NCBI GenBank assembly: GCA_964537685.1
Contig: CAZICM010000013.1
Span: 64,132-105,199, forward strand
Source: an uncultured Polyangiaceae bacterium
Lineage (GTDB): Bacteria > Myxococcota_A > Polyangia > Polyangiales > Polyangiaceae
DNA: 41,068 bases
Reading direction: 5' to 3'
The position numbers and the translations under genes are program-made. Shown here in pieces: positions 18,718 to 41,068 of the stretch (positions are counted from its first letter, which is position 1; each line of letters opens with the position of its first letter). The notes below the pieces were generated by a model that worked only from the letters and a program-made list of their open reading frames with translations, was not told where the DNA came from and ran no database searches.

Positions 18718-21069
18718 TCAACGGAATGGCTTCACATTCGCCCGTGCCCAAGCAAGCACACGGCGGCGCTCACGCCCTGACAACCCATACACATCGAAAA
18801 TCAGCGCATCCAAGGCATCCTGCTCGGACTCCAAAATGCCCAAATTCCTCTTCGACAGCGCCAAACAAAACATTTTACATTTCAATTGAATATGTTTTTC
18901 AATCGGCCTGGGCGCGGGAATAGAGCGCAGATGCCCAATCTTCACCTGAGGCATTCCCTGCCGCGCATCCCGGAACGCATGATAATGAAACCAGCGCAAC
19001 AAGCTTGAATTCAGCAGCGAAAGCAGCACATACCAAGGCCACGCCCGATGTTCAAAACACGCCAGAAGCGAATTGCGGAAGGCATGGCCATCGTTTTTCG
19101 CCGCAATGGGATAACGCGCCGTCTGGCGCACCACAATCGGCACATTCCTATATTCAGACGCCGGACGCATTTTCGTTCCCAGCGCCTTGCGGTTTACAAA
19201 TAACCTCGGTTTCCCCAGGAAAAACGCCGAAACATCGGCCCCTTCCCGGATAGGCGCGTGAAAAGGCGCACCCGCTTCATCCATTTCAATCAAATATTTT
19301 CTCAATTCAGGCGTCGTCTGAAACCCGCGCTCTCCAAAAATCTCCGCGGGCAGCGGACTCATCGCCGACAGCCGCTCGAGCAAGGCCAAATCTTCCGTCG
19401 ACACATCGTTGCGATCGAGCGGCCAAATATCGCCCGGCGTTCGCATAAAGCCTTTTGTTTTGCGGTCTTTGCGCGCCTGCTTTGGTTGAACGAAGAGCCC
19501 GCGGCGCACCGACACAAGCGCCATGCACGGCTGAAACACACCTTCAAAAGCACCGTCCCCAAAATCGGTCAAAGGCTCAACAATATCGCACAGCGCATCG
19601 TGAGCTCTTCTCACCGGCTCATAACCTTTTAAATCGGCGACCGACGTAGGCAGCACCAAACCCAGGCGCCCGCCCTCCACCAGAAGCGCCGCCGCCACAT
19701 ACACAAACGCTCCATGCGTCGTCCGATACCCTCCAAATGCCGGATTCTCCGCGCATAAAAAGGCATGCAGCGAAGACTCCATACGCTGAACAGCCCTGCC
19801 CGCATGCGCAATCCAGGGAGGATTGCCGATTACCACATCAAAACCATTTCGCTTATCCGAGAAAATGAGCGGAAATAAATCGCTCCATCCAAAAGGCTGC
19901 CCGGAAAAATCAATTGTTTTCTTTATCGTTTTCTTTATTGCTTTTTGCGGGCGGGCCGCTGCCCTCTTTGGGCTCCGCGCGGGAACTTTTCCAAGCAATG
20001 AGTTTGCCACACGAATGTGTTTGAATACCTTCGTATTGGGAAATCCCAAACGGACTGTTTCCATCCACAAAGCCATGCGGCAGAGCTCCACGGCCATTGG
20101 ATTGATATCCACACCGTAAATACAGCGGCCCGCGACATCCGAAAACGCTTGAGCCTTCATGGCGCGGGAAGGCTTCTTGGGCGCCGCCCTCGCGCCCGCG
20201 AGCTCCACAGCGATACGGCGGGCCGCCTCCGACAGAAAAAACCCGGATCCGCACGAAGGATCGCACACCCGCAATTGCAACAAAGCCCGCTCCGCACCGG
20301 GCGCTCGCATGGCCTTCTCAAGCTGCGGCGAAAGCGCCTCATCCAGCACCCGCGCAATCACCTCGGGCGGCGTGTAATAACTCCCCGTTCCCCTCCGCTC
20401 ATGCTCGCCCAAAGAGCGCACATCGAAGCGAAGATTCATTAAATCGTCGAGATCGATGGAAGGATGCAATTCGAGCAGGCATTCATAGGCTTCAGCCAGC
20501 TCATCCAAGCGGATATTTAAAATATTCAGATAGCGCGGCCCGGCTTTACCCTTCTCCCAAAACAAATACCGGAACACACAAAACAGCGTTTCATTCGGAA
20601 GCGAGCACGAAAACAAAAGCCTATCGTCGACGGCCTCTTCAAAAAGAGCACCCAGCGCGGCAATGCCCAATTTGTCCGACCCTTGCCGGCACAATTGCAT
20701 TGCATCACAAAAAGACTGCCAAATATTTTTTTGAGATTGAACCTTTATAATTCCGCCCAGCCGTATAAATCGAAAAATACCTTTATCTCTAGCGTAACGC
20801 GCGCGCAAAAGCCGGGGAGTGTCCGCATTGAACAGACCGCCGGAACACTCGATGATTGCCATGAAAACAATACGATAGACAAGACAGAGCAATTTCTTAT
20901 AAAAAGCCGGCCCGCTCAGCCGCCGGTATTTGAGCGCCCTGCGCAGCGCTTCATTGGATGGATGGCGCAGAAAGCCTCCCGCAAGCGCAAAGACCGACAT
21001 TTCAAGGCGCACGCGAAGCTCGGTGGACTGCTCGGCGAAGGCGGGAAGCGCGGCCGTTTTAGAGGGCAC
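18718..21069 (-). CDS. Gamma-class N6-adenine DNA methyltransferase with a roughly 230-aa N-terminal extra domain and a TaqI-like C-terminal target-recognition domain. This is a possible Type IIG (MmeI-like) RM enzyme or an orphan MTase.
   Basis: Motif I is VCDPSCGSGFFL. Motif IV is VVIGNPPW (NPPW). YGVDINPMAVELCRMAL lies between them. The single polypeptide is 783 aa and no separate REase gene is adjacent. An in-frame 12-bp tandem duplication (KKTIKKTI) occurs at about 19917-19941. Confidence 0.75.
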   Translation of the reverse strand: MPSKTAALPAFAEQSTELRVRLEMSVFALAGGFLRHPSNEALRRALKYRRLSGPAFYKKLLCLVYRIVFMAIIECSGGLFNADTPRLLRARYARDKGIFRFIRLGGIIKVQSQKNIWQSFCDAMQLCRQGSDKLGIAALGALFEEAVDDRLLFSCSLPNETLFCVFRYLFWEKGKAGPRYLNILNIRLDELAEAYECLLELHPSIDLDDLMNLRFDVRSLGEHERRGTGSYYTPPEVIARVLDEALSPQLEKAMRAPGAERALLQLRVCDPSCGSGFFLSEAARRIAVELAGARAAPKKPSRAMKAQAFSDVAGRCIYGVDINPMAVELCRMALWMETVRLGFPNTKVFKHIRVANSLLGKVPARSPKRAAARPQKAIKKTIKKTIDFSGQPFGWSDLFPLIFSDKRNGFDVVIGNPPWIAHAGRAVQRMESSLHAFLCAENPAFGGYRTTHGAFVYVAAALLVEGGRLGLVLPTSVADLKGYEPVRRAHDALCDIVEPLTDFGDGAFEGVFQPCMALVSVRRGLFVQPKQARKDRKTKGFMRTPGDIWPLDRNDVSTEDLALLERLSAMSPLPAEIFGERGFQTTPELRKYLIEMDEAGAPFHAPIREGADVSAFFLGKPRLFVNRKALGTKMRPASEYRNVPIVVRQTARYPIAAKNDGHAFRNSLLACFEHRAWPWYVLLSLLNSSLLRWFHYHAFRDARQGMPQVKIGHLRSIPAPRPIEKHIQLKCKMFCLALSKRNLGILESEQDALDALIFDVYGLSGRERRRVLAWARANVKPFR

Positions 21070-24135: not shown

Positions 24136-26457
24136 ATGCTGCTCAATGCGGAGGAATTGGGCGAGCTCATGAGCCTGGCCGTCCAGAGCGGCCTGCTTTA
24201 CCATCGGGATTTGCTCCTTGAAGGCTTTCCAAAAATCATCCGGGATGAATTGCCCCTTAAAAAAGATCCTATTGAACAACTGCGAAGTGATCTGGAAATA
24301 TTAAATCGAATTCCAGCCACCGAACCGGAATTACCCGCCGCACCGCTTGAGATTTGGATAAGAAACGCTATCGGGTTTTTGCAGGGGGCGCCCGAGCAAG
24401 CGCTTCTCTACACATTGAGCCAACACCTTATTGAAAGGCGCCCGCATAAAACCAAATCGGCACCACCTCCGCCGGCCTACATGCCAACCAAAGGATTCTA
24501 TTTTTGGGGTGGCGACGATCGATTTTTAGATACATTCGAAAGAGTTCGCTCGCTTATCGATCCCGACCGGAGCGCGGGCGACGAACCGGAGACACCGCCG
24601 AGGCGCGATACAGGCGAAATCTCGGCTCCCCAAACGCCTGAACGCTTTGTGAATATCGGGCTTTCGGCCAAGGCGGAGCCCACGCAATTTTGCCCAAAAG
24701 ATCGCTGCCTGGACCCGGCTTCGGCCTACTATTGCTGGCTTGAAATAGGCGCTCTTCTCGAGCAGGGCGATACGCATGACAAGCCGGCCAAATTCCCCGC
24801 CGAGCTCCTGCCGGACGAGGCAATGCTTACCGTCGTATTGTTTACAAATCCCAATGGATTTGAATTAAATCCCGAGGCCGACCTGGGAAAACTCCTGCTG
24901 AACAAGGATGGCACGGTCACGGTTGCACGGCGCGCCTGCACGCCTGAGGGCATGAAAGAAAGCGATCCGCTCTTGGAGCGCAGATTATTCTTTCCCATTA
25001 AAACACCTGCGAAGGAGGGCGAATATTTTCTTCGCGTGAGCATTTATTATGAGAATGCGCTTGTGCAATCGCATCAGATGCGCATGAAAATCGGCGTTAA
25101 TACCTATACGCGGCAGGCCGTGTACACCGAGACGGATTACACGCTAAGCCGAAGCCTCCGAAAAAGCGCGATGGATTTTCTTCGCGGCCATCAGTTGAGC
25201 ATTTTTATGAATGAGAGCGAAGATGGCACGCATGGATTCCGATTCTTGGGAGGCGGCGATTATCACAAAAGCGTATTCCTCAATGACGGCGAAGTTACCA
25301 ATTTGATCCAAATGCTTCGCAATACCTTGAAGAAAGCTTGCTGGGACGAGGAAGCGGATTGGACGCCTCAGCAAGATCAATCCTACCGTTATGAAAACAG
25401 CGGCGATTTTGATTTATTGCAGCGAGACCTTGTCAATATGGCTATTGCGGGACACCGCGCCTACGATATGATCGCCGATCAGCTTGGAGCCGATTTCGAA
25501 GAAATTGACAAGCTCAAGGCTCAAATGCGGAGACCGGGCCAGCTCCAATTCGCGCTGAAGCAATCGGTACGCTTGTATTTGCCCATTGCGCTGTTTTACG
25601 ACCATGCGCTCGATAGCTGGCTCGATCCCAAAGAATTCTCTCTGTGCAATGCCTTTAAAGAGGCCGCGGCGCAGCATGATCATGGCCTCGAAGCGGCGGC
25701 CTGTTTTCAGGGCGACTGCCCCAATCGCGATAACGATCGAATTGTATGCCCAGGCGGATTCTGGGGCTTTCGGCATGCGCTTGGCCTGCCTCTCACCTTG
25801 GAAGGCGAAGAACAGCACTCGCTGGACCTGGAATACCCGCTTCCCGCCGACACCCCGCCTTCGATGACGGTTTCGGTCTGCGACACGCCCGATCTGGAGC
25901 ATGTTCAATCGCATATAGAAAAAATTCAATCGTTAATTCCGGCGGGGCAGCTTGGACTGGCGAAAACCCGCGATTCGACGATTGAATTATTAAAACAGCG
26001 CTCATCGCATTTGGTCTATTTCTATTGCCACGGCGGCGTAAGCGGCACCGTCCCCTTTTTGCAGATCGGCCCTTCCAAAAGCGATCGGATTGGCCGCGAC
26101 ACGCTCCGGGAAAAGCGTATCTCGTGGAAGAAGCCGCGCTCTTTGGTATTTATCAATGGCTGCCACACCACCGATTTAGAACCCGAGCGCGCCATCGATT
26201 TGGTATCCGGATTTGTGAGGACAGCCCAGGCATCCGGCGTTATTGGCACGGAAATCACCATTTTTGAACCATTGGCCGTCAGCTTTTCCCAATGGTTTTT
26301 TCAATTCTTTCTTAAAGAACAAAAATCCGTTGGTGAGTCCATCCGGCTCGCTAGGCTTCGCGTGCTGCAGCGAGAGCTCAATCCGCTTGGATTGGTCTAT
26401 ATTCCCTTCGCGGCCTCCACGCTTAAGATTTCATCGTCCGCTTCCGCTTCGCAATAA
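24136..26457 (+). CDS. CHAT-domain (caspase-like His-Cys) protease with a roughly 550-aa N-terminal region of unknown function. Predicted activating protease for the upstream gasdermin.
   Basis: The C-terminal 230 aa carry a caspase/CHAT catalytic dyad in beta-strand-turn context: His in SHLVYFYCHGGVSG (about aa 632) and Cys in SLVFINGCHTTD (about aa 676), separated by about 44 aa. The gene is translationally coupled to the gasdermin-like gene (TGA 24128-24130, ATG 24136). The N-terminal 100 aa are predicted helical (MLLNAEELGELMSLAVQSGLLYHRDLLLEGFPKIIRDELPLKKDPIEQLRSDLEILNRIP). Confidence 0.75.
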   Translation: MLLNAEELGELMSLAVQSGLLYHRDLLLEGFPKIIRDELPLKKDPIEQLRSDLEILNRIPATEPELPAAPLEIWIRNAIGFLQGAPEQALLYTLSQHLIERRPHKTKSAPPPPAYMPTKGFYFWGGDDRFLDTFERVRSLIDPDRSAGDEPETPPRRDTGEISAPQTPERFVNIGLSAKAEPTQFCPKDRCLDPASAYYCWLEIGALLEQGDTHDKPAKFPAELLPDEAMLTVVLFTNPNGFELNPEADLGKLLLNKDGTVTVARRACTPEGMKESDPLLERRLFFPIKTPAKEGEYFLRVSIYYENALVQSHQMRMKIGVNTYTRQAVYTETDYTLSRSLRKSAMDFLRGHQLSIFMNESEDGTHGFRFLGGGDYHKSVFLNDGEVTNLIQMLRNTLKKACWDEEADWTPQQDQSYRYENSGDFDLLQRDLVNMAIAGHRAYDMIADQLGADFEEIDKLKAQMRRPGQLQFALKQSVRLYLPIALFYDHALDSWLDPKEFSLCNAFKEAAAQHDHGLEAAACFQGDCPNRDNDRIVCPGGFWGFRHALGLPLTLEGEEQHSLDLEYPLPADTPPSMTVSVCDTPDLEHVQSHIEKIQSLIPAGQLGLAKTRDSTIELLKQRSSHLVYFYCHGGVSGTVPFLQIGPSKSDRIGRDTLREKRISWKKPRSLVFINGCHTTDLEPERAIDLVSGFVRTAQASGVIGTEITIFEPLAVSFSQWFFQFFLKEQKSVGESIRLARLRVLQRELNPLGLVYIPFAASTLKISSSASASQ

Positions 26458-28093
26458 GCGCCGTCAGCTCATCCCGCGTCACGCCCAGGCGCGCCGCCGT
26501 CTTATGCGCGAGCGAGGTTTTAGCTACGCCGCCGACAAAACCATAGGTTGGCCTCTCGCTTTTATCGAGTTCTACCTGAATAAATTCTAAATGCGGCACC
26601 GGCAATTCTTCCGAAAGGTGCGCCGCAAATTGAAGCAGGTGCGTGGACACAAAGGCTTGGGCTTCCATTTCGGGAAGCAATGAAATGACCAGCCTCGCAA
26701 TCTCTTCGCCCTCGGATGGATTTGTCCCGGAGCACAGCTCATCGAGAATGACAAGCGAACAGCGATCGAGATTTTCAAACATTCGCCGGATGCGCAAGAG
26801 CTCCATGCCCAATTGCCCCTCGGGCTGGTCGGCCCGCGCTTCGTCGAGCAGCGACACAAAAAGCCCTGAAAACCTAGGCAGCCGCGCCGATCGGGCAGGC
26901 ACGAAGAGACCCGCGCCCGCAAATAAATAGGCCAGCGCAAGCGATTGAAGCAGCCTGGTTTTTCCGCCTGAGTTTGGCCCCGTCACCAATACGACCGAAT
27001 CGGCATGCGCCGTGCGTAAATCACAAGGAACGGGGATCGTTTTGCCTTCCAATAAAAGCGGATTGAATAATCCCAATATTTCAATGCCGGGACATTCAGC
27101 AGCGTTTTGATTGCCAATCTCAATGAATTCGGGGAAGCAGACCGACAGCCCCTTGGCCAATACCCCGTCGCGAAAGCTGAGGGCAGCCAAGTAAAATTCC
27201 ATGTCGCCAAGCAATTGAAAGAGCGAGACCAAAACCGCTTCCATGCCTGTGAATACATCATCGAAGAGGCGTTCGACGACTTCGCCGCCATTCATGCGAT
27301 AACCGCGGAGCATCAGCCTCAGCTTGGCCAGCCATCGCCCCAGCGGAGATGCATGAAATGGGTTGTCTTGATTCTCCCGCACGGCAACAATTTGAAAGGT
27401 GCGCAGTTCTCCATCCGAGCCCAGGCGCACGCGCAGATCGACCGTGCCCAAATGAGCTTCATGATCGAGCAGGGCATCCAATCGCTTGTAGGATGGGCTT
27501 TCTAAAACAGCCTGCCCAAATGCCCGGATGCGCGATAGGCCCGATGTGGATTCATTGAATGAATTGGCCATCAATCCAATCAATGCATGAAGTGCCCTTA
27601 AAATATCGAGGCGCCGGATCTGCGCCGTAATAAAGCGTCCCGAGCATAAGAGCGCGCGAAAACGAACGATATCGGCATAAATGCTTTCAAATTGGCCACG
27701 AAGTATATCCGAGCCGGCCAGATCGCCTAAAATAGACCGCCTGAATTCCGTCTCGGCGAGATCGCTGGGCGGTTCGGAGAGGGCGCGCAGCAAATACCTC
27801 GCGCAGGGTTCGTACGCGCGGCCATTACATCGGATGGATAGAGAATTTTTTACAAGCTGATCCAAAAATAAATCGCGCTCGAAATAGGCGCGATCCCAAT
27901 CGGTTTTTGGAAGGCGGGCGCGGCCCATCGCTTGATCGAAATTCTCGACAGAACCGCTGGTTGCAAAGGCAAAAATTAAAATCTGCCGGAGTTCCTCGGC
28001 GTCGACGCGCACCAGAGGTTTTTCGCTTAGCAGATCGGGAAAGGGCAAGGGCGAAGGGGATGTGGCCATGAAGAATGCCGGATGGACAAGCAA
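26423..28093 (-). CDS. MutS-family ATPase paralog (MutS domain III core plus domain V ABC ATPase). It lacks mismatch-binding and Smr domains.
   Basis: The Walker A motif is LVTGPNSGGKTRLLQSLAL. The Walker B/D-loop is SLVILDELCSGTNPSEGEEIA. The His-loop is FVSTHLLQFA. The C-terminal helix PTYGFVGGVAKTSLAHKTAARLGV resembles MutS. The 556-aa protein's 3' end overlaps the CHAT protease gene by 35 nt in convergent orientation. Confidence 0.75.
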   Translation of the reverse strand: MLVHPAFFMATSPSPLPFPDLLSEKPLVRVDAEELRQILIFAFATSGSVENFDQAMGRARLPKTDWDRAYFERDLFLDQLVKNSLSIRCNGRAYEPCARYLLRALSEPPSDLAETEFRRSILGDLAGSDILRGQFESIYADIVRFRALLCSGRFITAQIRRLDILRALHALIGLMANSFNESTSGLSRIRAFGQAVLESPSYKRLDALLDHEAHLGTVDLRVRLGSDGELRTFQIVAVRENQDNPFHASPLGRWLAKLRLMLRGYRMNGGEVVERLFDDVFTGMEAVLVSLFQLLGDMEFYLAALSFRDGVLAKGLSVCFPEFIEIGNQNAAECPGIEILGLFNPLLLEGKTIPVPCDLRTAHADSVVLVTGPNSGGKTRLLQSLALAYLFAGAGLFVPARSARLPRFSGLFVSLLDEARADQPEGQLGMELLRIRRMFENLDRCSLVILDELCSGTNPSEGEEIARLVISLLPEMEAQAFVSTHLLQFAAHLSEELPVPHLEFIQVELDKSERPTYGFVGGVAKTSLAHKTAARLGVTRDELTALIAKRKRTMKS

Positions 28094-29671: not shown

Positions 29672-30391
29672 TTGAATCGGTTCTACATGATGACAATGAC
29701 CGATAGATTTCACAATCTGATGGTGCGCCATTTTATTGTATGGGCAGGTATTTTAGGGCTCACTTCGGGATGCGCTATTTATAGGCATCCTTTGGCGCTT
29801 CCCCCGAGGGAGCAGCCTTTTGTGGCGGTGCTGAGCGGTGAGATGCCGGAGCCTATCGATATGGTGTCACGGCACGCGTGGATTGTAGCCAATGCGGCCG
29901 ATCAAAAGCCGCTTCACCGCTATGAGCTTTTGGGTTCGGGTTTTAAGACGACGACAGACACGCCTTTTGATTATTTTGGCTCGGGCGATGTGGCCATCCA
30001 CGGCATTGTTATCACCGATAGCCGTGGTATTCAGCGCTTCTTGGCTTGCCTCGATAAAGAAACGCCTCAATACAATGAAGATCATCCTATATACTTTCCA
30101 ATGCCAGGCCCCAATAGCAATACCTTTGTCGATCGCCTTCTCAGGCGCTGCGACATTTCCGTCGAATTGCCATCTACCGCGATTGGAAAGGATTACCGGG
30201 GAATCATCGGGGCATCCATTACATCGGGTGGTACAGGAATTCAGTTGGAAACATGGCCTTTTGGAATAAAGATTGGCTTAAAAGAGGGCGTTGAGCTTCA
30301 TATTTTAGGGATGTCGATCGGGGTGGATTTTTGGCCTCCCGCGCTTATTGTGCCGGTGAATCCGGGGCGGCTGGGTTTTGATGATCGGTAG
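29672..30391 (+). CDS. DUF3750-like lipoprotein (conserved HAW motif).
   Basis: The lipobox is GLTSGC. The motif VSRHAWIVANAAD contains the HAW signature recalled for DUF3750. The protein is 239 aa. The family assignment comes from memory of the motif only. Confidence 0.45.
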   Translation: MNRFYMMTMTDRFHNLMVRHFIVWAGILGLTSGCAIYRHPLALPPREQPFVAVLSGEMPEPIDMVSRHAWIVANAADQKPLHRYELLGSGFKTTTDTPFDYFGSGDVAIHGIVITDSRGIQRFLACLDKETPQYNEDHPIYFPMPGPNSNTFVDRLLRRCDISVELPSTAIGKDYRGIIGASITSGGTGIQLETWPFGIKIGLKEGVELHILGMSIGVDFWPPALIVPVNPGRLGFDDR

Positions 30392-38324: not shown

Positions 38325-38450
38325 GGCGCAGCATTATCAGACGATGGCTATTGAAGTCCAACACAACCGGCACTAAATACGGTACTCGGCGTCCGCCGGA
38401 ATTCACCGGCGCTGCTTTGGCCCTAGTTTTCCCATTCTGAGAGGGTTTTT

Positions 38451-39212
38451 GTGATCAACATCAACGCAGAAGCTCCTTTGTTTAGCCTGCCCGACCATTT
38501 AGGAAGGTTGGTTTCGCTCGAATCCTTCCGCAATAAAAGGCATGTGCTTCTTCTCTTTTATCCACTCGATTTCACACCGACGTGAAGCCGCGAAGTGCCG
38601 GCCGTGCAAGCCCATCTCGCGGGCTTTTCGGCTGCCCACACCCAGGTCTTGGGTGTCAGCGTGGATAGCGTTTTTAGTCATGCCAATTGGGCCGCGAAGG
38701 ATCTAGGCGGCGTTTCCTTTCCCTTGCTCGCCGATTTTCATCCCAAGGGGAAAGTCTCAAGCGCATTCGGCGCCTATTTGGAGCAGGCGGGTATTAGCGA
38801 TCGGGCAACGGTGATTATCGATGCCTCGGGCATTGTGCGTTATTCGGAAAGCGTAACGCCGGCCGGGGAACGCGATATCGCTGCGCTTGTTGCCCAAGCC
38901 GAGAAGGTCGATCGGGAATATGGGCAGCCGCTCCCCGGCGCTGCCAATCCAACAGGAATCGCTAACAATTCTATTTTATTTGTAAAGAGCCGCTGTGGAT
39001 TTTCAAAAGCGGTCTTGCTGGCCCGGGATAATTTGCATTTGGGCGATGCGCTGCCCGTGCGCAATGTGACGGAAGATCCTTCGGCGCTGGAGGATCTTAA
39101 AGCCTTGACGGGAAGGGAAACGGCGCCGTGCATGGTCGCCGATGGACGGCCTATGCATGAGTCGAAGGAGATTATTGCCTATCTCGCGGCGAATACGGCT
39201 CCCCTTATTTAA
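38451..39212 (+). CDS. Peroxiredoxin (AhpC/TSA-family) to CGFS-type glutaredoxin-like fusion. The predicted selenoprotein has an in-frame TGA (38583-38585) at the peroxidatic-Cys position.
   Basis: Reading from the GTG at 38451 (RBS-like GAGAGGG upstream) gives VININAEAPLFSLPDHLGRLVSLESFRNKRHVLLLFYPLDFTPT-[TGA]-SREVPAVQAHLAGFSAAHTQVLGVSVDSVFSHANW. This aligns residue-for-residue with the Prx core FYPLDFTFVCPTE...LGVSVDS.FSHKAW, with TGA replacing the Cp codon. The C-terminal 90 aa (ILFVKSRCGFSKAVLL...TAPCMVADGRPMHESKEIIAYL) has a glutaredoxin fold pattern with a CGFS motif. The ORF caller reports only 38595..39212. Confidence 0.7.
38583..38640 (+). other. Predicted selenocysteine (UGA) codon plus a downstream candidate SECIS-like stem-loop region.
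   Basis: TGA lies at 38583-38585 in the Prx frame. Immediately 3' is AGCCGCGAAGUGCCGGCCGUGCAAGCCCAUCUCGCGGGCU. Here AGCCGCGA can pair with UCGCGGGCU with one bulge, and AAGCCC/GGGCUU-type inner pairing is possible. The structure was not computationally folded. Confidence 0.35.
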
Positions 39213-40258
39213 TGCGGTGATTGAGGACATAACTCGGTCAATCCAAAACACGCTTGGACAGGCCCTTTGGGGCATGAAGCCTTTGGGGAATCGCCCTGAA
39301 TATTGCGCCTATACGCAAGGGCATCCGGGTAAAGGGGCGTGTTGACGAACAGCGAATATCCCTGCCGAGGGCACGCTTTATCTAAATCGGCGGCCCGCTC
39401 TATTTTAAAGCGAAAATGATTCAATCGATAAGCCTCGATGCGCCGGGCCCGCCCCAATGGCTTCCACAATTGTTTGGCCTCCTCCAGATCCATCACATAA
39501 AACAGCCCAGCCCCCTGCTCGCTGACGGATTCAATGCAGAGCTCTTGCGCGCCGTCGCCATTTAAATCCATCATGCGGTGCCGCCTATAGGAAAGCGTTG
39601 AAGCGCCATCCGACACATCCTCCGACCATTGCGTGAGTGTGTGTATGACGCGAATCCCTTCTTTGTGCGGGATCATGATTGCAATTTCATCATCAAGCCC
39701 ATACATCCCGTCGTGTTCATGGGAAGTGCGCACGGCTCCCAGCCAGAGGGTGATTTTCGACAATACGATGGTATTTGTATGGCGGTAGGCACAGCGGTGA
39801 ATGTCTTCGCCCGCAGGCTGTTTATCGGCTCTTCCCTCGCGCGGGCAAGGCAGCGCGCGGTTCCATTCGTCCTCTTGAATCAGGGCCAGGGCATGCTCTT
39901 CTTCGGAGGGATTGACAACATCGGGGCCTCCGGGAAGATCCAATTCGATTAAATTGGGCGCAGGTTCGGAGCGGGGCTCGATAGGGCCTTCCGCATAAGG
40001 CGATGGACGTTTTGGGGCGTCTGTAAATGCCGCTGCGATTTCCGGAGCCTGTGCGGGCGCAGGCGGACGCGAAGACGCTTGGGGTTGCGACGCTGAAAGA
40101 AGCACGGCGGGTGCTGCGGGACGATTGGGAGCAGAGGCTTTTTCTGCCGCTCCCGGGCATCCCAGGATCAGGAAAGCCGATGCCAAGAAAAACAAAATTG
40201 AAAAGCGGCGATCCAATTGTTTCGTATTGATGTGAAATTTTTTACAAATTGCAGACAT
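39209..40258 (-). CDS. Lipoprotein, hypothetical, with a Pro/Ala-rich linker.
   Basis: The ORF runs from 40336. The internal ATG at 40258 gives MSAICKKFHINTKQLDRRFSILFFLASAFLILGCPG (a basic n-region, an h-region and an LILGC lipobox). This start overlaps the upstream Cys-rich gene's stop by only 17 nt instead of 95 nt. Confidence 0.55.
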   Translation of the reverse strand: MSAICKKFHINTKQLDRRFSILFFLASAFLILGCPGAAEKASAPNRPAAPAVLLSASQPQASSRPPAPAQAPEIAAAFTDAPKRPSPYAEGPIEPRSEPAPNLIELDLPGGPDVVNPSEEEHALALIQEDEWNRALPCPREGRADKQPAGEDIHRCAYRHTNTIVLSKITLWLGAVRTSHEHDGMYGLDDEIAIMIPHKEGIRVIHTLTQWSEDVSDGASTLSYRRHRMMDLNGDGAQELCIESVSEQGAGLFYVMDLEEAKQLWKPLGRARRIEAYRLNHFRFKIERAADLDKACPRQGYSLFVNTPLYPDALAYRRNIQGDSPKASCPKGPVQACFGLTELCPQSPH

Positions 40259-41068
40259 TATAAACGGCGCAATCGGCGGAGCATTGCGCGCAGGTGCAGG
40301 CGTAGACGGGATCGTAGAGCGGCTTGGCGTTGGCATATTGCATATCGCACATATCGGCGCAGGCGGCGTCGCCGCAGGCTTGCACGCAGCTTAGCCATTG
40401 GCTGCACAAGGCATTGAATTGGCAAGTGCTCAAGGGCTGAATACAATTGGCCTGAGCACAGGTGGAGCAGTCCACAGGCGAGCTTCCCACTTTGCCGCAT
40501 GAATTAAAGTCGCTGCAGTCCGCCGTGCAAGCCGCGCAATTGCAGGTGTAAATCGCGTCGAATAGCGGCTTGGCGTTGGCATATTGCATATCGCATTGCA
40601 TGGAGCACGGTTCATCATTGCAGGATTGCATGCAGGTGAGCCACTGACCGCACAAGGCATCATTTTGGCAGGCCATTACGGCATTGGGACAATGCGCCGA
40701 TGTACAGGATTGGCAGCTCTGCCAGTTGGTGGTTTTGCAGGGATTGAACATCGCGCATTCGGTTGTGCAATTGTTGCAATTGCATGCATAAATTTGATCG
40801 TATTGTGGCTTTGCATTAGGATATTGCATATCGCACATATCGGTGCAGGCGCTGTCCGTACACATTTGAACGCATTGAAGCCATGGCTGGCATGTTGCAT
40901 TGAATTGACAGGCATTGATTTCGTTAATGCAGTTGGCGGTCGAGCAATTAAAGCAATCGGCGACGGTAGCTCCACCGCCTTGGCCCATTCCGCCTTGGTT
41001 CATGCCGCCTTGATTCATGCCGCCTTGATTCATGCCGCCTTGGTTCATGCCGCCTTGGTTCATGCCGC
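40242..41068 (-). CDS. Cysteine-rich protein with three tandem roughly 83-aa 10-Cys repeats and an N-proximal (MNQGG)n pentapeptide repeat. The 5' end runs off the window.
   Basis: The three repeats share C..C....C.....CQ.NA.C..WL.C.Q.C.D..C...CDMQYANAKP.YD..Y.C.C..C...C...N.C. Nucleotide-level periodicity of about 249 bp is visible (gcttggcgttggcatattgcatatcgca at 40322 and 40571; a variant at 40811). The reading frame is open to the window edge through the 15-bp repeats. Confidence 0.6.
   Translation of the reverse strand, partial: GMNQGGMNQGGMNQGGMNQGGMNQGGMGQGGGATVADCFNCSTANCINEINACQFNATCQPWLQCVQMCTDSACTDMCDMQYPNAKPQYDQIYACNCNNCTTECAMFNPCKTTNWQSCQSCTSAHCPNAVMACQNDALCGQWLTCMQSCNDEPCSMQCDMQYANAKPLFDAIYTCNCAACTADCSDFNSCGKVGSSPVDCSTCAQANCIQPLSTCQFNALCSQWLSCVQACGDAACADMCDMQYANAKPLYDPVYACTCAQCSADCAVYNVCNL
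40986..41068. repeat. 15-bp tandem repeat (catgccgccttgRtt), about 5.5 copies, encoding (MNQGG)n on the minus strand. The window end truncates it.
   Basis: Direct reading gives cattccgccttggtt, catgccgccttgatt x2, catgccgccttggtt x2, then catgccgc. Confidence 0.9.

Follow-up and report, generated by a model that had tools for sequence, protein, structure and literature searches.

The stretch of DNA analysed here, hereafter "the window", comprises 41,068 nucleotides from an uncultured Polyangiaceae bacterium and carries on its plus strand a peroxiredoxin gene (38451-39212) that gene callers break at an in-frame TGA. We interpret this locus as one gene for a 253-residue selenoprotein, in which SelB and an RNA hairpin would insert selenocysteine (Sec) as residue 45 and an AhpE-type peroxidase would be recycled by a fused domain carrying Cys182. 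We put the probability of this interpretation at about 85%. It is carried by a single reading frame across the TGA, conservation of that codon in relatives from several phyla, its alignment with the catalytic cysteine of AhpE, the identities of the two domains, residues that do not vary in the family and a hairpin at a compatible distance downstream.

A UGA codon at the peroxidatic position

The frame runs on the plus strand from GTG 38451 to TAA 39210-39212, and the TGA at 38583-38585, in the motif FYPLDFTPT-TGA-SREV, is its sole interruption. A program that lists open reading frames (ORFs) returned the locus in two parts, a 44-residue ORF (38451-38585) and a 205-residue ORF (38595-39212). 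The N-terminus, of the form MI-x-(V/I), lines up with the starts of full-length relatives that have cysteine at the site of the TGA ("Cys forms"). The gene is monocistronic. The features of this part of the locus are:

38451..39212, plus strand: whole gene, 253 codons plus stop, with UGA codon 45 read as Sec (translation, span of the Pfam match, frame conservation in 80 loci)
38439..38453, plus strand: Shine-Dalgarno-like GAGAGGG (38439-38445), 5-nt spacer and GTG start (38451-38453), read from the sequence
38583..38585, plus strand: UGA, predicted Sec codon, residue 45, at the peroxidatic position (TGA in 80/80 loci; alignment with Cys45 of AhpE)

A genome scan that used one genome per species (GTDB species representatives) found 589 relatives, the best 80 of which were kept and read (L001-L080). 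All of these best 80 have TGA as the codon, and none has TAA or TAG. It is preceded by [FYLS]YPLD[FWY]TPT and followed by [ST]xE[VI]P, in the same frame and with no spacer. The 80 loci come from metagenome-assembled genomes labelled Myxococcota/Polyangia, Acidobacteriota, Planctomycetota, Bdellovibrionota, Binatota and others, representing at least five phyla. Further loci (L081-L088 and L091) also have TGA at this codon, while L089 and L090 have TGC, which encodes Cys. Among Logan contigs, the exact 205-residue product of the window was found on six; the four displayed come from four different sequencing runs and all have TGA. Runs with the identical gene include SRR10064596, SRR35428438, SRR35041409 and SRR33633067. 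The codon is kept as well in relatives on Logan contigs at 77% and 83% identity.

The region upstream of the TGA has the appearance of coding sequence. Its 43 codons contain no stops in 83 sequences, and diversity at the three codon positions follows the same coding pattern on both sides of the TGA (0.28/0.23/0.56 upstream versus 0.25/0.21/0.49 downstream). TGA terminates 10 of the 34 other long ORFs of the window, indicating that UGA is a normal stop here and that the standard code is in use.

Database entries for the family mostly lack the catalytic residue. A protein search returned thousands of relatives, and details were obtained for the best 120. About 115 of these 120 are 181-208 residues long and start just past the TGA. 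Four are full-length (247-258 residues) with Cys in the motif TPTCS, and one, the JGI entry P0032, displays W at the Sec position. The underlying DNA of P0032 reads TGA (L091:322-324), so the W is an artefact of a translation table in which UGA is Trp. Entries of this JGI type, translated with UGA as Trp, can conceal Sec codons. On the Logan contigs the 44-residue and 205-residue genes are called separately, and in RefSeq the fragment from Polyangium aurulentum is named "redoxin domain-containing protein"; the database form of the gene is thus a fragment of 200-205 residues. A word-prefiltered protein search with the N-terminal 90 residues, made for relatives annotated with U or carrying Cys, gave only 10 distant matches.

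Two other readings of the TGA were weighed against this evidence. If the TGA were a true stop, as all gene callers treat it, the locus would be a pseudogene or two genes, a 44-residue peptide and a 205-residue truncated redoxin starting at GTG 38595; the lack of any recognisable Sec machinery in the 41 kb window also speaks for this reading. We nevertheless consider it extremely improbable. Only TGA is found in the 80 loci, across phyla and always in frame, and purifying selection acts on the 43 upstream codons. A split at the TGA would leave the peroxiredoxin fold halved and without its catalytic residue, orthologs with a Cys codon are uninterrupted, and the Shine-Dalgarno-like sequence lies before 38451, with none evident before 38595. 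It is very improbable, too, that UGA is decoded as Trp, Cys or Gly through an altered code or a suppressor tRNA. The W displayed by P0032 would favour such decoding, but it stems from the translation table, and the many ORFs of the window that end in TGA argue for termination. Moreover, a peroxiredoxin with Trp or Gly as its peroxidatic residue would be inactive, and the host phyla use the standard genetic code. The conserved TGA, the Cys codons, the coding character of the upstream region and the standard use of stops therefore make a pseudogene, a split gene, a reassigned code or a sequencing error very unlikely. As judged from these sequence comparisons, the TGA most likely forms a Sec/Cys pair at the catalytic residue, the only reading that fits the TGA evidence.

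These results bear out much of the original prediction, which had been made from the letters of the window alone. It had described an in-frame TGA at 38583-38585 within 38451-39212, and all of the features that it described were found where it had put them. It had placed the TGA at the site of the peroxidatic Cys as a Sec/Cys pair, in agreement with the alignment to Cys45 of AhpE, the 80 of 80 loci with TGA and the TGC of L089 and L090. The frame that it had called open and conserved on both sides is crossed by a Pfam domain and has the coding pattern, and no stops, upstream. The fragmentary gene call that it expected was reproduced as the 44/205-residue split and recurs in public proteins. 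Orthologs with a true stop and a separate upstream gene had been named beforehand as evidence to the contrary; a conserved TGA or a Cys codon was seen instead.

The sequence immediately 3' of the UGA is also biased in composition. The following Ser codon (38586-38588 in the window, compared with L001-L080) is nearly always AGC or AGT (70 of 72 cases, the other 2 being TCG), and an A follows the UGA in 79 of 81 sequences. Such a bias may represent a context constraint on recoding.

The peroxiredoxin domain and its fused partner

With Cys placed at the TGA, the Pfam model AhpC-TSA (PF00578) matches residues 4-131, across the TGA, with an E-value of 1.4e-31 and a score of 109.5 bits (cut-off 26). 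The closest solved structure is AhpE of M. tuberculosis (PDB 1xxu), with an E-value of 1.4e-30, versus about 1e-19 to 2e-19 for the best Prx1-type structure, and the TGA aligns with the catalytic Cys45 of AhpE. A structure was modelled for the Cys-form relative P0015 (119-sequence alignment, pLDDT 81.5, pTM 0.79). In Foldseek the top match of this model is again AhpE, at a TM-score of 0.86 on the target and 36% identity. C182 and C227 are the only cysteines of the window protein, residues 1-181 having none. As judged by best matches, the peroxiredoxin domain belongs with the AhpE subfamily and has no resolving Cys. Residue conservation was counted over 81 Sec-form members of the family, and the features of the domain are:

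38460..38843, plus strand: AhpC/TSA peroxiredoxin domain, residues 4-131, AhpE-like, with no Cys of its own (Pfam, AhpE match, Foldseek search with the P0015 model)
38562..38585, plus strand: active-site motif P38-L-D-F-T42-P-T-U45 (PxxxTxxU, with U as predicted); P38, T42 and the Sec position are kept in 81/81
38802..38804, plus strand: Arg118, the conserved peroxiredoxin active-site arginine, invariant in 81/81

Most family members do have further cysteines in this part of the protein, at the positions of A150 (38898-38900; 70/81) and S76 (38676-38678; 47/81) of the window protein. Both are missing in the window protein and its close relatives, so they are not essential to the core mechanism.

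The C-terminal part, residues 176-249, matches three Pfam models, GST_N_2 (2e-8, 35 bits, cut-off 25), GST_N_3 (4e-7, 30.9 bits, cut-off 22) and Glutaredoxin (7e-6, 26.5 bits, cut-off 22.9). The same result was obtained across the family: of 36 family C-termini tested, all matched Glutaredoxin and 35 matched GST_N_2/3. The features of this domain, whose names refer to glutaredoxins (Grx) and the N-terminal domains of glutathione S-transferases (GST-N), are:

38976..39197, plus strand: Grx/GST-N-like thioredoxin-fold domain, residues 176-249 (Pfam, family C-termini, profile search of the PDB)
38994..39005, plus strand: C182-G-F-S185 (CxxS) motif (conservation in 81 sequences, P0015 model)
39126..39131, plus strand: Pro226, at the cis-Pro position of the thioredoxin fold, and Cys227 (P226 81/81, C227 68/81)
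39159..39164, plus strand: Glu237-Ser238, "ES" motif of GST/Grx2 type, matched to the ES of GST delta by the profile search

Within the CGFS tetrapeptide, C182 is kept in 81/81 members and S185 in 80/81, with lower counts for G183 (64/81) and F184 (49/81); the exact tetrapeptide can therefore be present in 49 of the 81 members at most. The column of residue 238 holds S in 58/81 and A in 18/81, and the ES motif of GSTs contacts the gamma-glutamyl group of glutathione. In the P0015 model the equivalent Cys (residue 181) lies directly N-terminal to a predicted helix, 182-193. When a profile of the 36 domains was compared with the PDB, the best values were those of GST delta (6.7e-5), dehydroascorbate reductase (DHAR; 2.8e-4) and class I Grx (4e-4 to 6e-4); among class II CGFS proteins, Grx5 gave an E-value of 0.016 and YdhD 0.059. 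An extended loop before the Cys and a GG-x-D motif are hallmarks of class II Grx. As read from the sequence, the loop of the window protein is short (K-S-R-C), and H-E-S stands where GG-x-D would be. By these comparisons the C-terminal domain is a monothiol CxxS member of the Grx/GST-N superfamily, between class I Grx and GST N-terminal domains.

The domain does resemble class II CGFS glutaredoxins (Grx5, Grx4/YdhD) in having a CGFS tetrapeptide on a thioredoxin fold. It differs from them in the C-terminal half, which is GST-N-like with its ES motif. Class II identity was ruled out by the weak match to Grx5 and YdhD, the short loop, the missing GG-x-D and the variable G and F. Of the earlier claim of a C-terminal monothiol-Grx CGFS domain, the thioredoxin-fold domain with CGFS at 182-185 stands, and membership in the class II CGFS Grx does not.

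Of the four full-length Cys forms, two, P0004 (WTGRS) and P0014 (GRGLS), have lost the CxxS cysteine, which is invariant in the 81 Sec forms. Though the sample of Cys forms is very small, the loss hints at a link between the partner Cys and selenium chemistry.

These features suggest a catalytic cycle, from which we infer that Sec is inserted, that the protein acts as a peroxidase, that its C-terminal domain does the recycling and which thiol takes part. Translation would start at GTG 38451, and at UGA 38583 SelB, bound to the hairpin at 38595-38639, would insert Sec in place of termination. Residues 1-150 would form an AhpE-type peroxiredoxin with an active site of P38, T42, U45 and R118. With T42 and R118 to activate it, as in all peroxiredoxins, the U45 selenolate would reduce peroxide and become a selenenic acid, and Cys182 of the domain at residues 176-249 would regenerate the selenol. 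This last step could follow either of two routes. In a monothiol route, glutathione or another small thiol would make an Se-S adduct that Cys182 removes; in the other, a selenenylsulfide between Cys182 and Sec would form directly and be resolved by Cys227 or a small thiol. There is a precedent for the monothiol route in AhpE itself: mycothiol, together with the glutaredoxin-like protein mycoredoxin-1, recycles its Cys45 sulfenic acid (Cys45-SOH) by such a mechanism (PMC8113037). By analogy with AhpE/mycoredoxin-1 and with the hybrid Prx5 proteins, and given an invariant C182 in the Sec forms, recycling by the C-terminal Cys182 seems probable.

A further possibility is that the protein is a selenoprotein in which the C-terminal domain is not the reductant. 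The protein would then hand oxidising equivalents on to other proteins, as a redox relay or sensor, or its CGFS domain would bind an Fe-S cluster in the manner of class II Grx. CGFS is a hallmark of the Fe-S-binding class II Grx, and the gene, being monocistronic, has no neighbouring reductase gene. Action in relays is known for peroxiredoxins (PMC8113037). We regard this possibility as unlikely. The C-terminal profile favours GST delta, DHAR and class I Grx (7e-5 to 6e-4) over Grx5 (0.016), the K-S-R-C loop and the H-E-S replacement depart from the class II pattern, and only the C and S of CGFS are invariant. Also, AhpE, the closest peroxiredoxin, depends on a Grx-like reductant (PMC8113037).

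The hairpin downstream of the UGA and the Sec machinery

Insertion of Sec by SelB would call for an RNA element downstream of the UGA, and a candidate for such a selenocysteine insertion sequence (SECIS) is present:

38595..38639, plus strand: candidate SECIS hairpin, stems 38595-97/38637-39, 38599-604/38629-34 and 38608-13/38621-26, loop AUCUCGC at 38614-38620

This hairpin has a minimum free energy of -21.6 kcal/mol, and its apical loop begins 28 nt after the UGA. Pair probabilities in an 84-nt context range from 0.72 to 0.91. An alternative fold with the loop CGUGCAA, which would put the UGA within a stem, loses to the 38595-38639 hairpin in the same context. The architecture seen in the window also occurs in relatives L085 and L088. 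At pair 18-51 the window has G.U, L082 has A-U and L085 has C-G, and both bases of the pair are third positions of codons.

The region is structured throughout the family. A main hairpin with its apical loop 18-30 nt past the UGA is found in 81 of 81 sequences, with at least 8 pairs in 74 of them. The 57 nt after the UGA fold with a mean energy of -23.8 kcal/mol versus -19.2 kcal/mol for synonymous-codon shuffles, a mean z of about -1.25 to -1.29. For control segments taken from these genes, individual z values run from -0.70 to +0.35, with a five-region average of -0.21 (Wilcoxon p 3e-10, computed on sequences that are not independent). In 48% of genes the segment after the UGA is more structured than any of the five others examined. 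There are at least two classes of hairpin, one with an upper stem at 24-30/40-46 in 51 sequences and one with a GGA loop and a stem at 18-23/27-32 in 21.

A number of results weigh against our interpretation of the locus. Rfam assigned no SECIS family to the whole window at the gathering threshold, nor to 38400-38800 at E-values up to 10, where it returned only chance matches to snoRNA and miRNA families. RNAalifold gave an empty consensus for the 81 segments and only the 6-bp upper stem in a subset of 40 sequences. With a fixed register, the long hairpin as a whole covaries no better than shuffles; covariation is modest for the GGA-loop hairpin, which accounts for about a quarter of members, and for the lower stem, and the register of the stem shifts between sequences. 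Taken alone, the window hairpin has a z of about -0.8 against codon shuffles. The rules of bSECISearch place the apical loop about 16-37 nt from the UGA, with a G in the first two positions of the loop; the window loop has no G at those positions, which 42 of the 81 family members do. The TGC relatives still fold (L089:3133-3192, -26.6 kcal/mol; L090:3133-3192, -22.4 kcal/mol). Since both Cys forms keep the hairpin, part of it may derive from the conserved peptide EA..RF; what they retain is either a fossil SECIS left after a change from Sec to Cys or a by-product of that peptide. With only two DNA sequences, both of which fold, the Cys forms do not discriminate as a control. As for the machinery, ARAGORN found no tRNA gene in the 41 kb window and no tRNA-Sec in the flanks of 60 loci (L001-L060). 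Pfam identified no SelA, SelB or SelD among 30 long ORFs of the window, an extent of 41 kb that says nothing either way. A tblastn search of all related loci with E. coli SelD as the query detected no SelD-like sequence in their flanks.

The hairpin at 38595-38639 is, on balance, compatible with a SECIS but not proven to be one. A search for a SECIS-like hairpin downstream of the TGA had been proposed with the original prediction; its outcome is mixed, a stable hairpin at a compatible distance with no match to a curated SECIS model.

Neighbouring genes and known peroxiredoxins

A scan for in-frame TGA codons gave ordinary neighbouring genes and chance ORFs, and no second selenoprotein gene in the window. 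Several of the neighbours have features of their own. Upstream of the peroxiredoxin gene, an EAD5 plus CHAT (caspase-like) protein (24136-26457, plus strand) adjoins a protein that consists of MutS domain V only (26423-28093, minus strand), with a DUF3750 protein nearby (29672-30391, plus strand). These genes also lie upstream of the peroxiredoxin-glutaredoxin gene in L085 (1-4918); because the same three genes precede it there, the neighbourhood is conserved. The set looks like a conflict or defence-type module. An 836-residue protein (3114-5624, minus strand) is a bacterial protein like the major vault protein (MVP), with an MVP shoulder domain (MVP_shoulder, 2e-30) and a Band_7/SPFH match. 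A 783-residue N6-adenine methylase of Eco57I/MmeI type with a TaqI-like specificity domain (18718-21069, minus strand) is likely a fused type IIG/IIL restriction-modification enzyme. Near the end of the window, a Cys-rich ORF of 273 residues (40242-41063, minus strand) starts with five MNQGG repeats, after which come three Cys-rich modules of ~70 residues that resemble one another; its start codon is five bases from the window end, and the true start may lie outside.

Knowledge of Sec peroxiredoxins with the motif TxxU dates from 2001 and PrxU of Eubacterium acidaminophilum. They are among the commoner bacterial selenoprotein families: 12 genes were counted in 2006, 253 in the GOS metagenome and, in 2016, a total of 78 organisms; the myxobacterium Anaeromyxobacter has three (PMC1794560, PMC2398784, PMC5029168, PMC13188914). 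The window protein resembles them in having a predicted Sec for the peroxidatic Cys in the TxxU of an AhpC/TSA fold, and under their definition by domain plus motif it counts as one of them (PMC1794560, PMC5029168, PMC13188914). It differs from PrxU in its AhpE-like peroxiredoxin domain and the added Grx/GST-N-like domain, and it scores 84.3 bits against the NCBIfam PrxU equivalog NF040737, the cut-off of which is 270. No other NCBIfam model reaches its cut-off for the window protein. The one peroxiredoxin fusion that was found described is Prx-PP2C (PMC2398784). In the open-access literature, neither selenoprotein tables and fusion lists, which name Prx-PP2C among others, nor full-text searches held a fusion of an AhpE-type Sec peroxiredoxin to a Grx-like domain, and NCBIfam does not hold one either.

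For comparison, AhpE of M. tuberculosis is closest by sequence and fold, has its catalytic residue at position 45, like the window protein, and likewise has no resolving Cys in the peroxiredoxin domain. AhpE, however, has Cys, a separate reductant and mycothiol, whereas the window protein would have Sec and a fused module, and its hosts are not Actinobacteria. The hybrid Prx5-Grx protein PGdx of H. influenzae (PDB 1nm3) shares the order of peroxiredoxin then Grx and the fusion of a peroxidase to its reductant (PMC8113037). The original prediction had drawn this comparison, which does not extend to the peroxiredoxin domain: PGdx is of Prx5 type with Cys, and 1nm3 aligns with the P0015 model at 17% identity, a TM-score of 0.45-0.47 and a full-length rmsd of about 13-13.8 A. 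The Grx of PGdx is of the dithiol CPYC type. Membership in the PGdx hybrids was rejected because of the AhpE-like domain, a CGFS in place of CxxC and the poor alignment to 1nm3. The low identity, the poor TM-score and rmsd and the different peroxiredoxin types indicate that the fusion in the window arose independently of PGdx.

Neither Sec peroxiredoxins nor peroxiredoxin-Grx fusions are new, and the window protein does not represent a new principle. What appears to be new is the joining of an AhpE-type Sec peroxiredoxin to a Grx/GST-N-like domain, in a family that is widespread and systematically truncated in annotation. A dedicated family model would correct the fragment entries and flag the use of Sec in phyla not discussed in the reviews of selenoproteomes that were consulted. 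A 1-Sec peroxiredoxin with a built-in monothiol reductant would be a compact system in which to study what selenium confers on a peroxiredoxin, for instance speed or resistance to over-oxidation, and the existence of natural Cys forms makes the family useful for comparing Sec with Cys.

Relatives were found in many soil and sediment bacteria. We tentatively suggest, at slightly less than even odds, that they belong to a large, unannotated family of self-recycling selenium peroxidases in Myxococcota, Acidobacteriota, Planctomycetota and Bdellovibrionota, in which an AhpE-type peroxiredoxin with Sec as its sole catalytic residue is covalently joined to its partner domain, and Sec and the invariant Cys of that domain form a selenenylsulfide. 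If so, Sec and the partner Cys would be co-evolving, given that some Cys forms have lost the latter. The implication would be that the use of selenium is far commoner in these largely aerobic soil and sediment phyla than annotation suggests.

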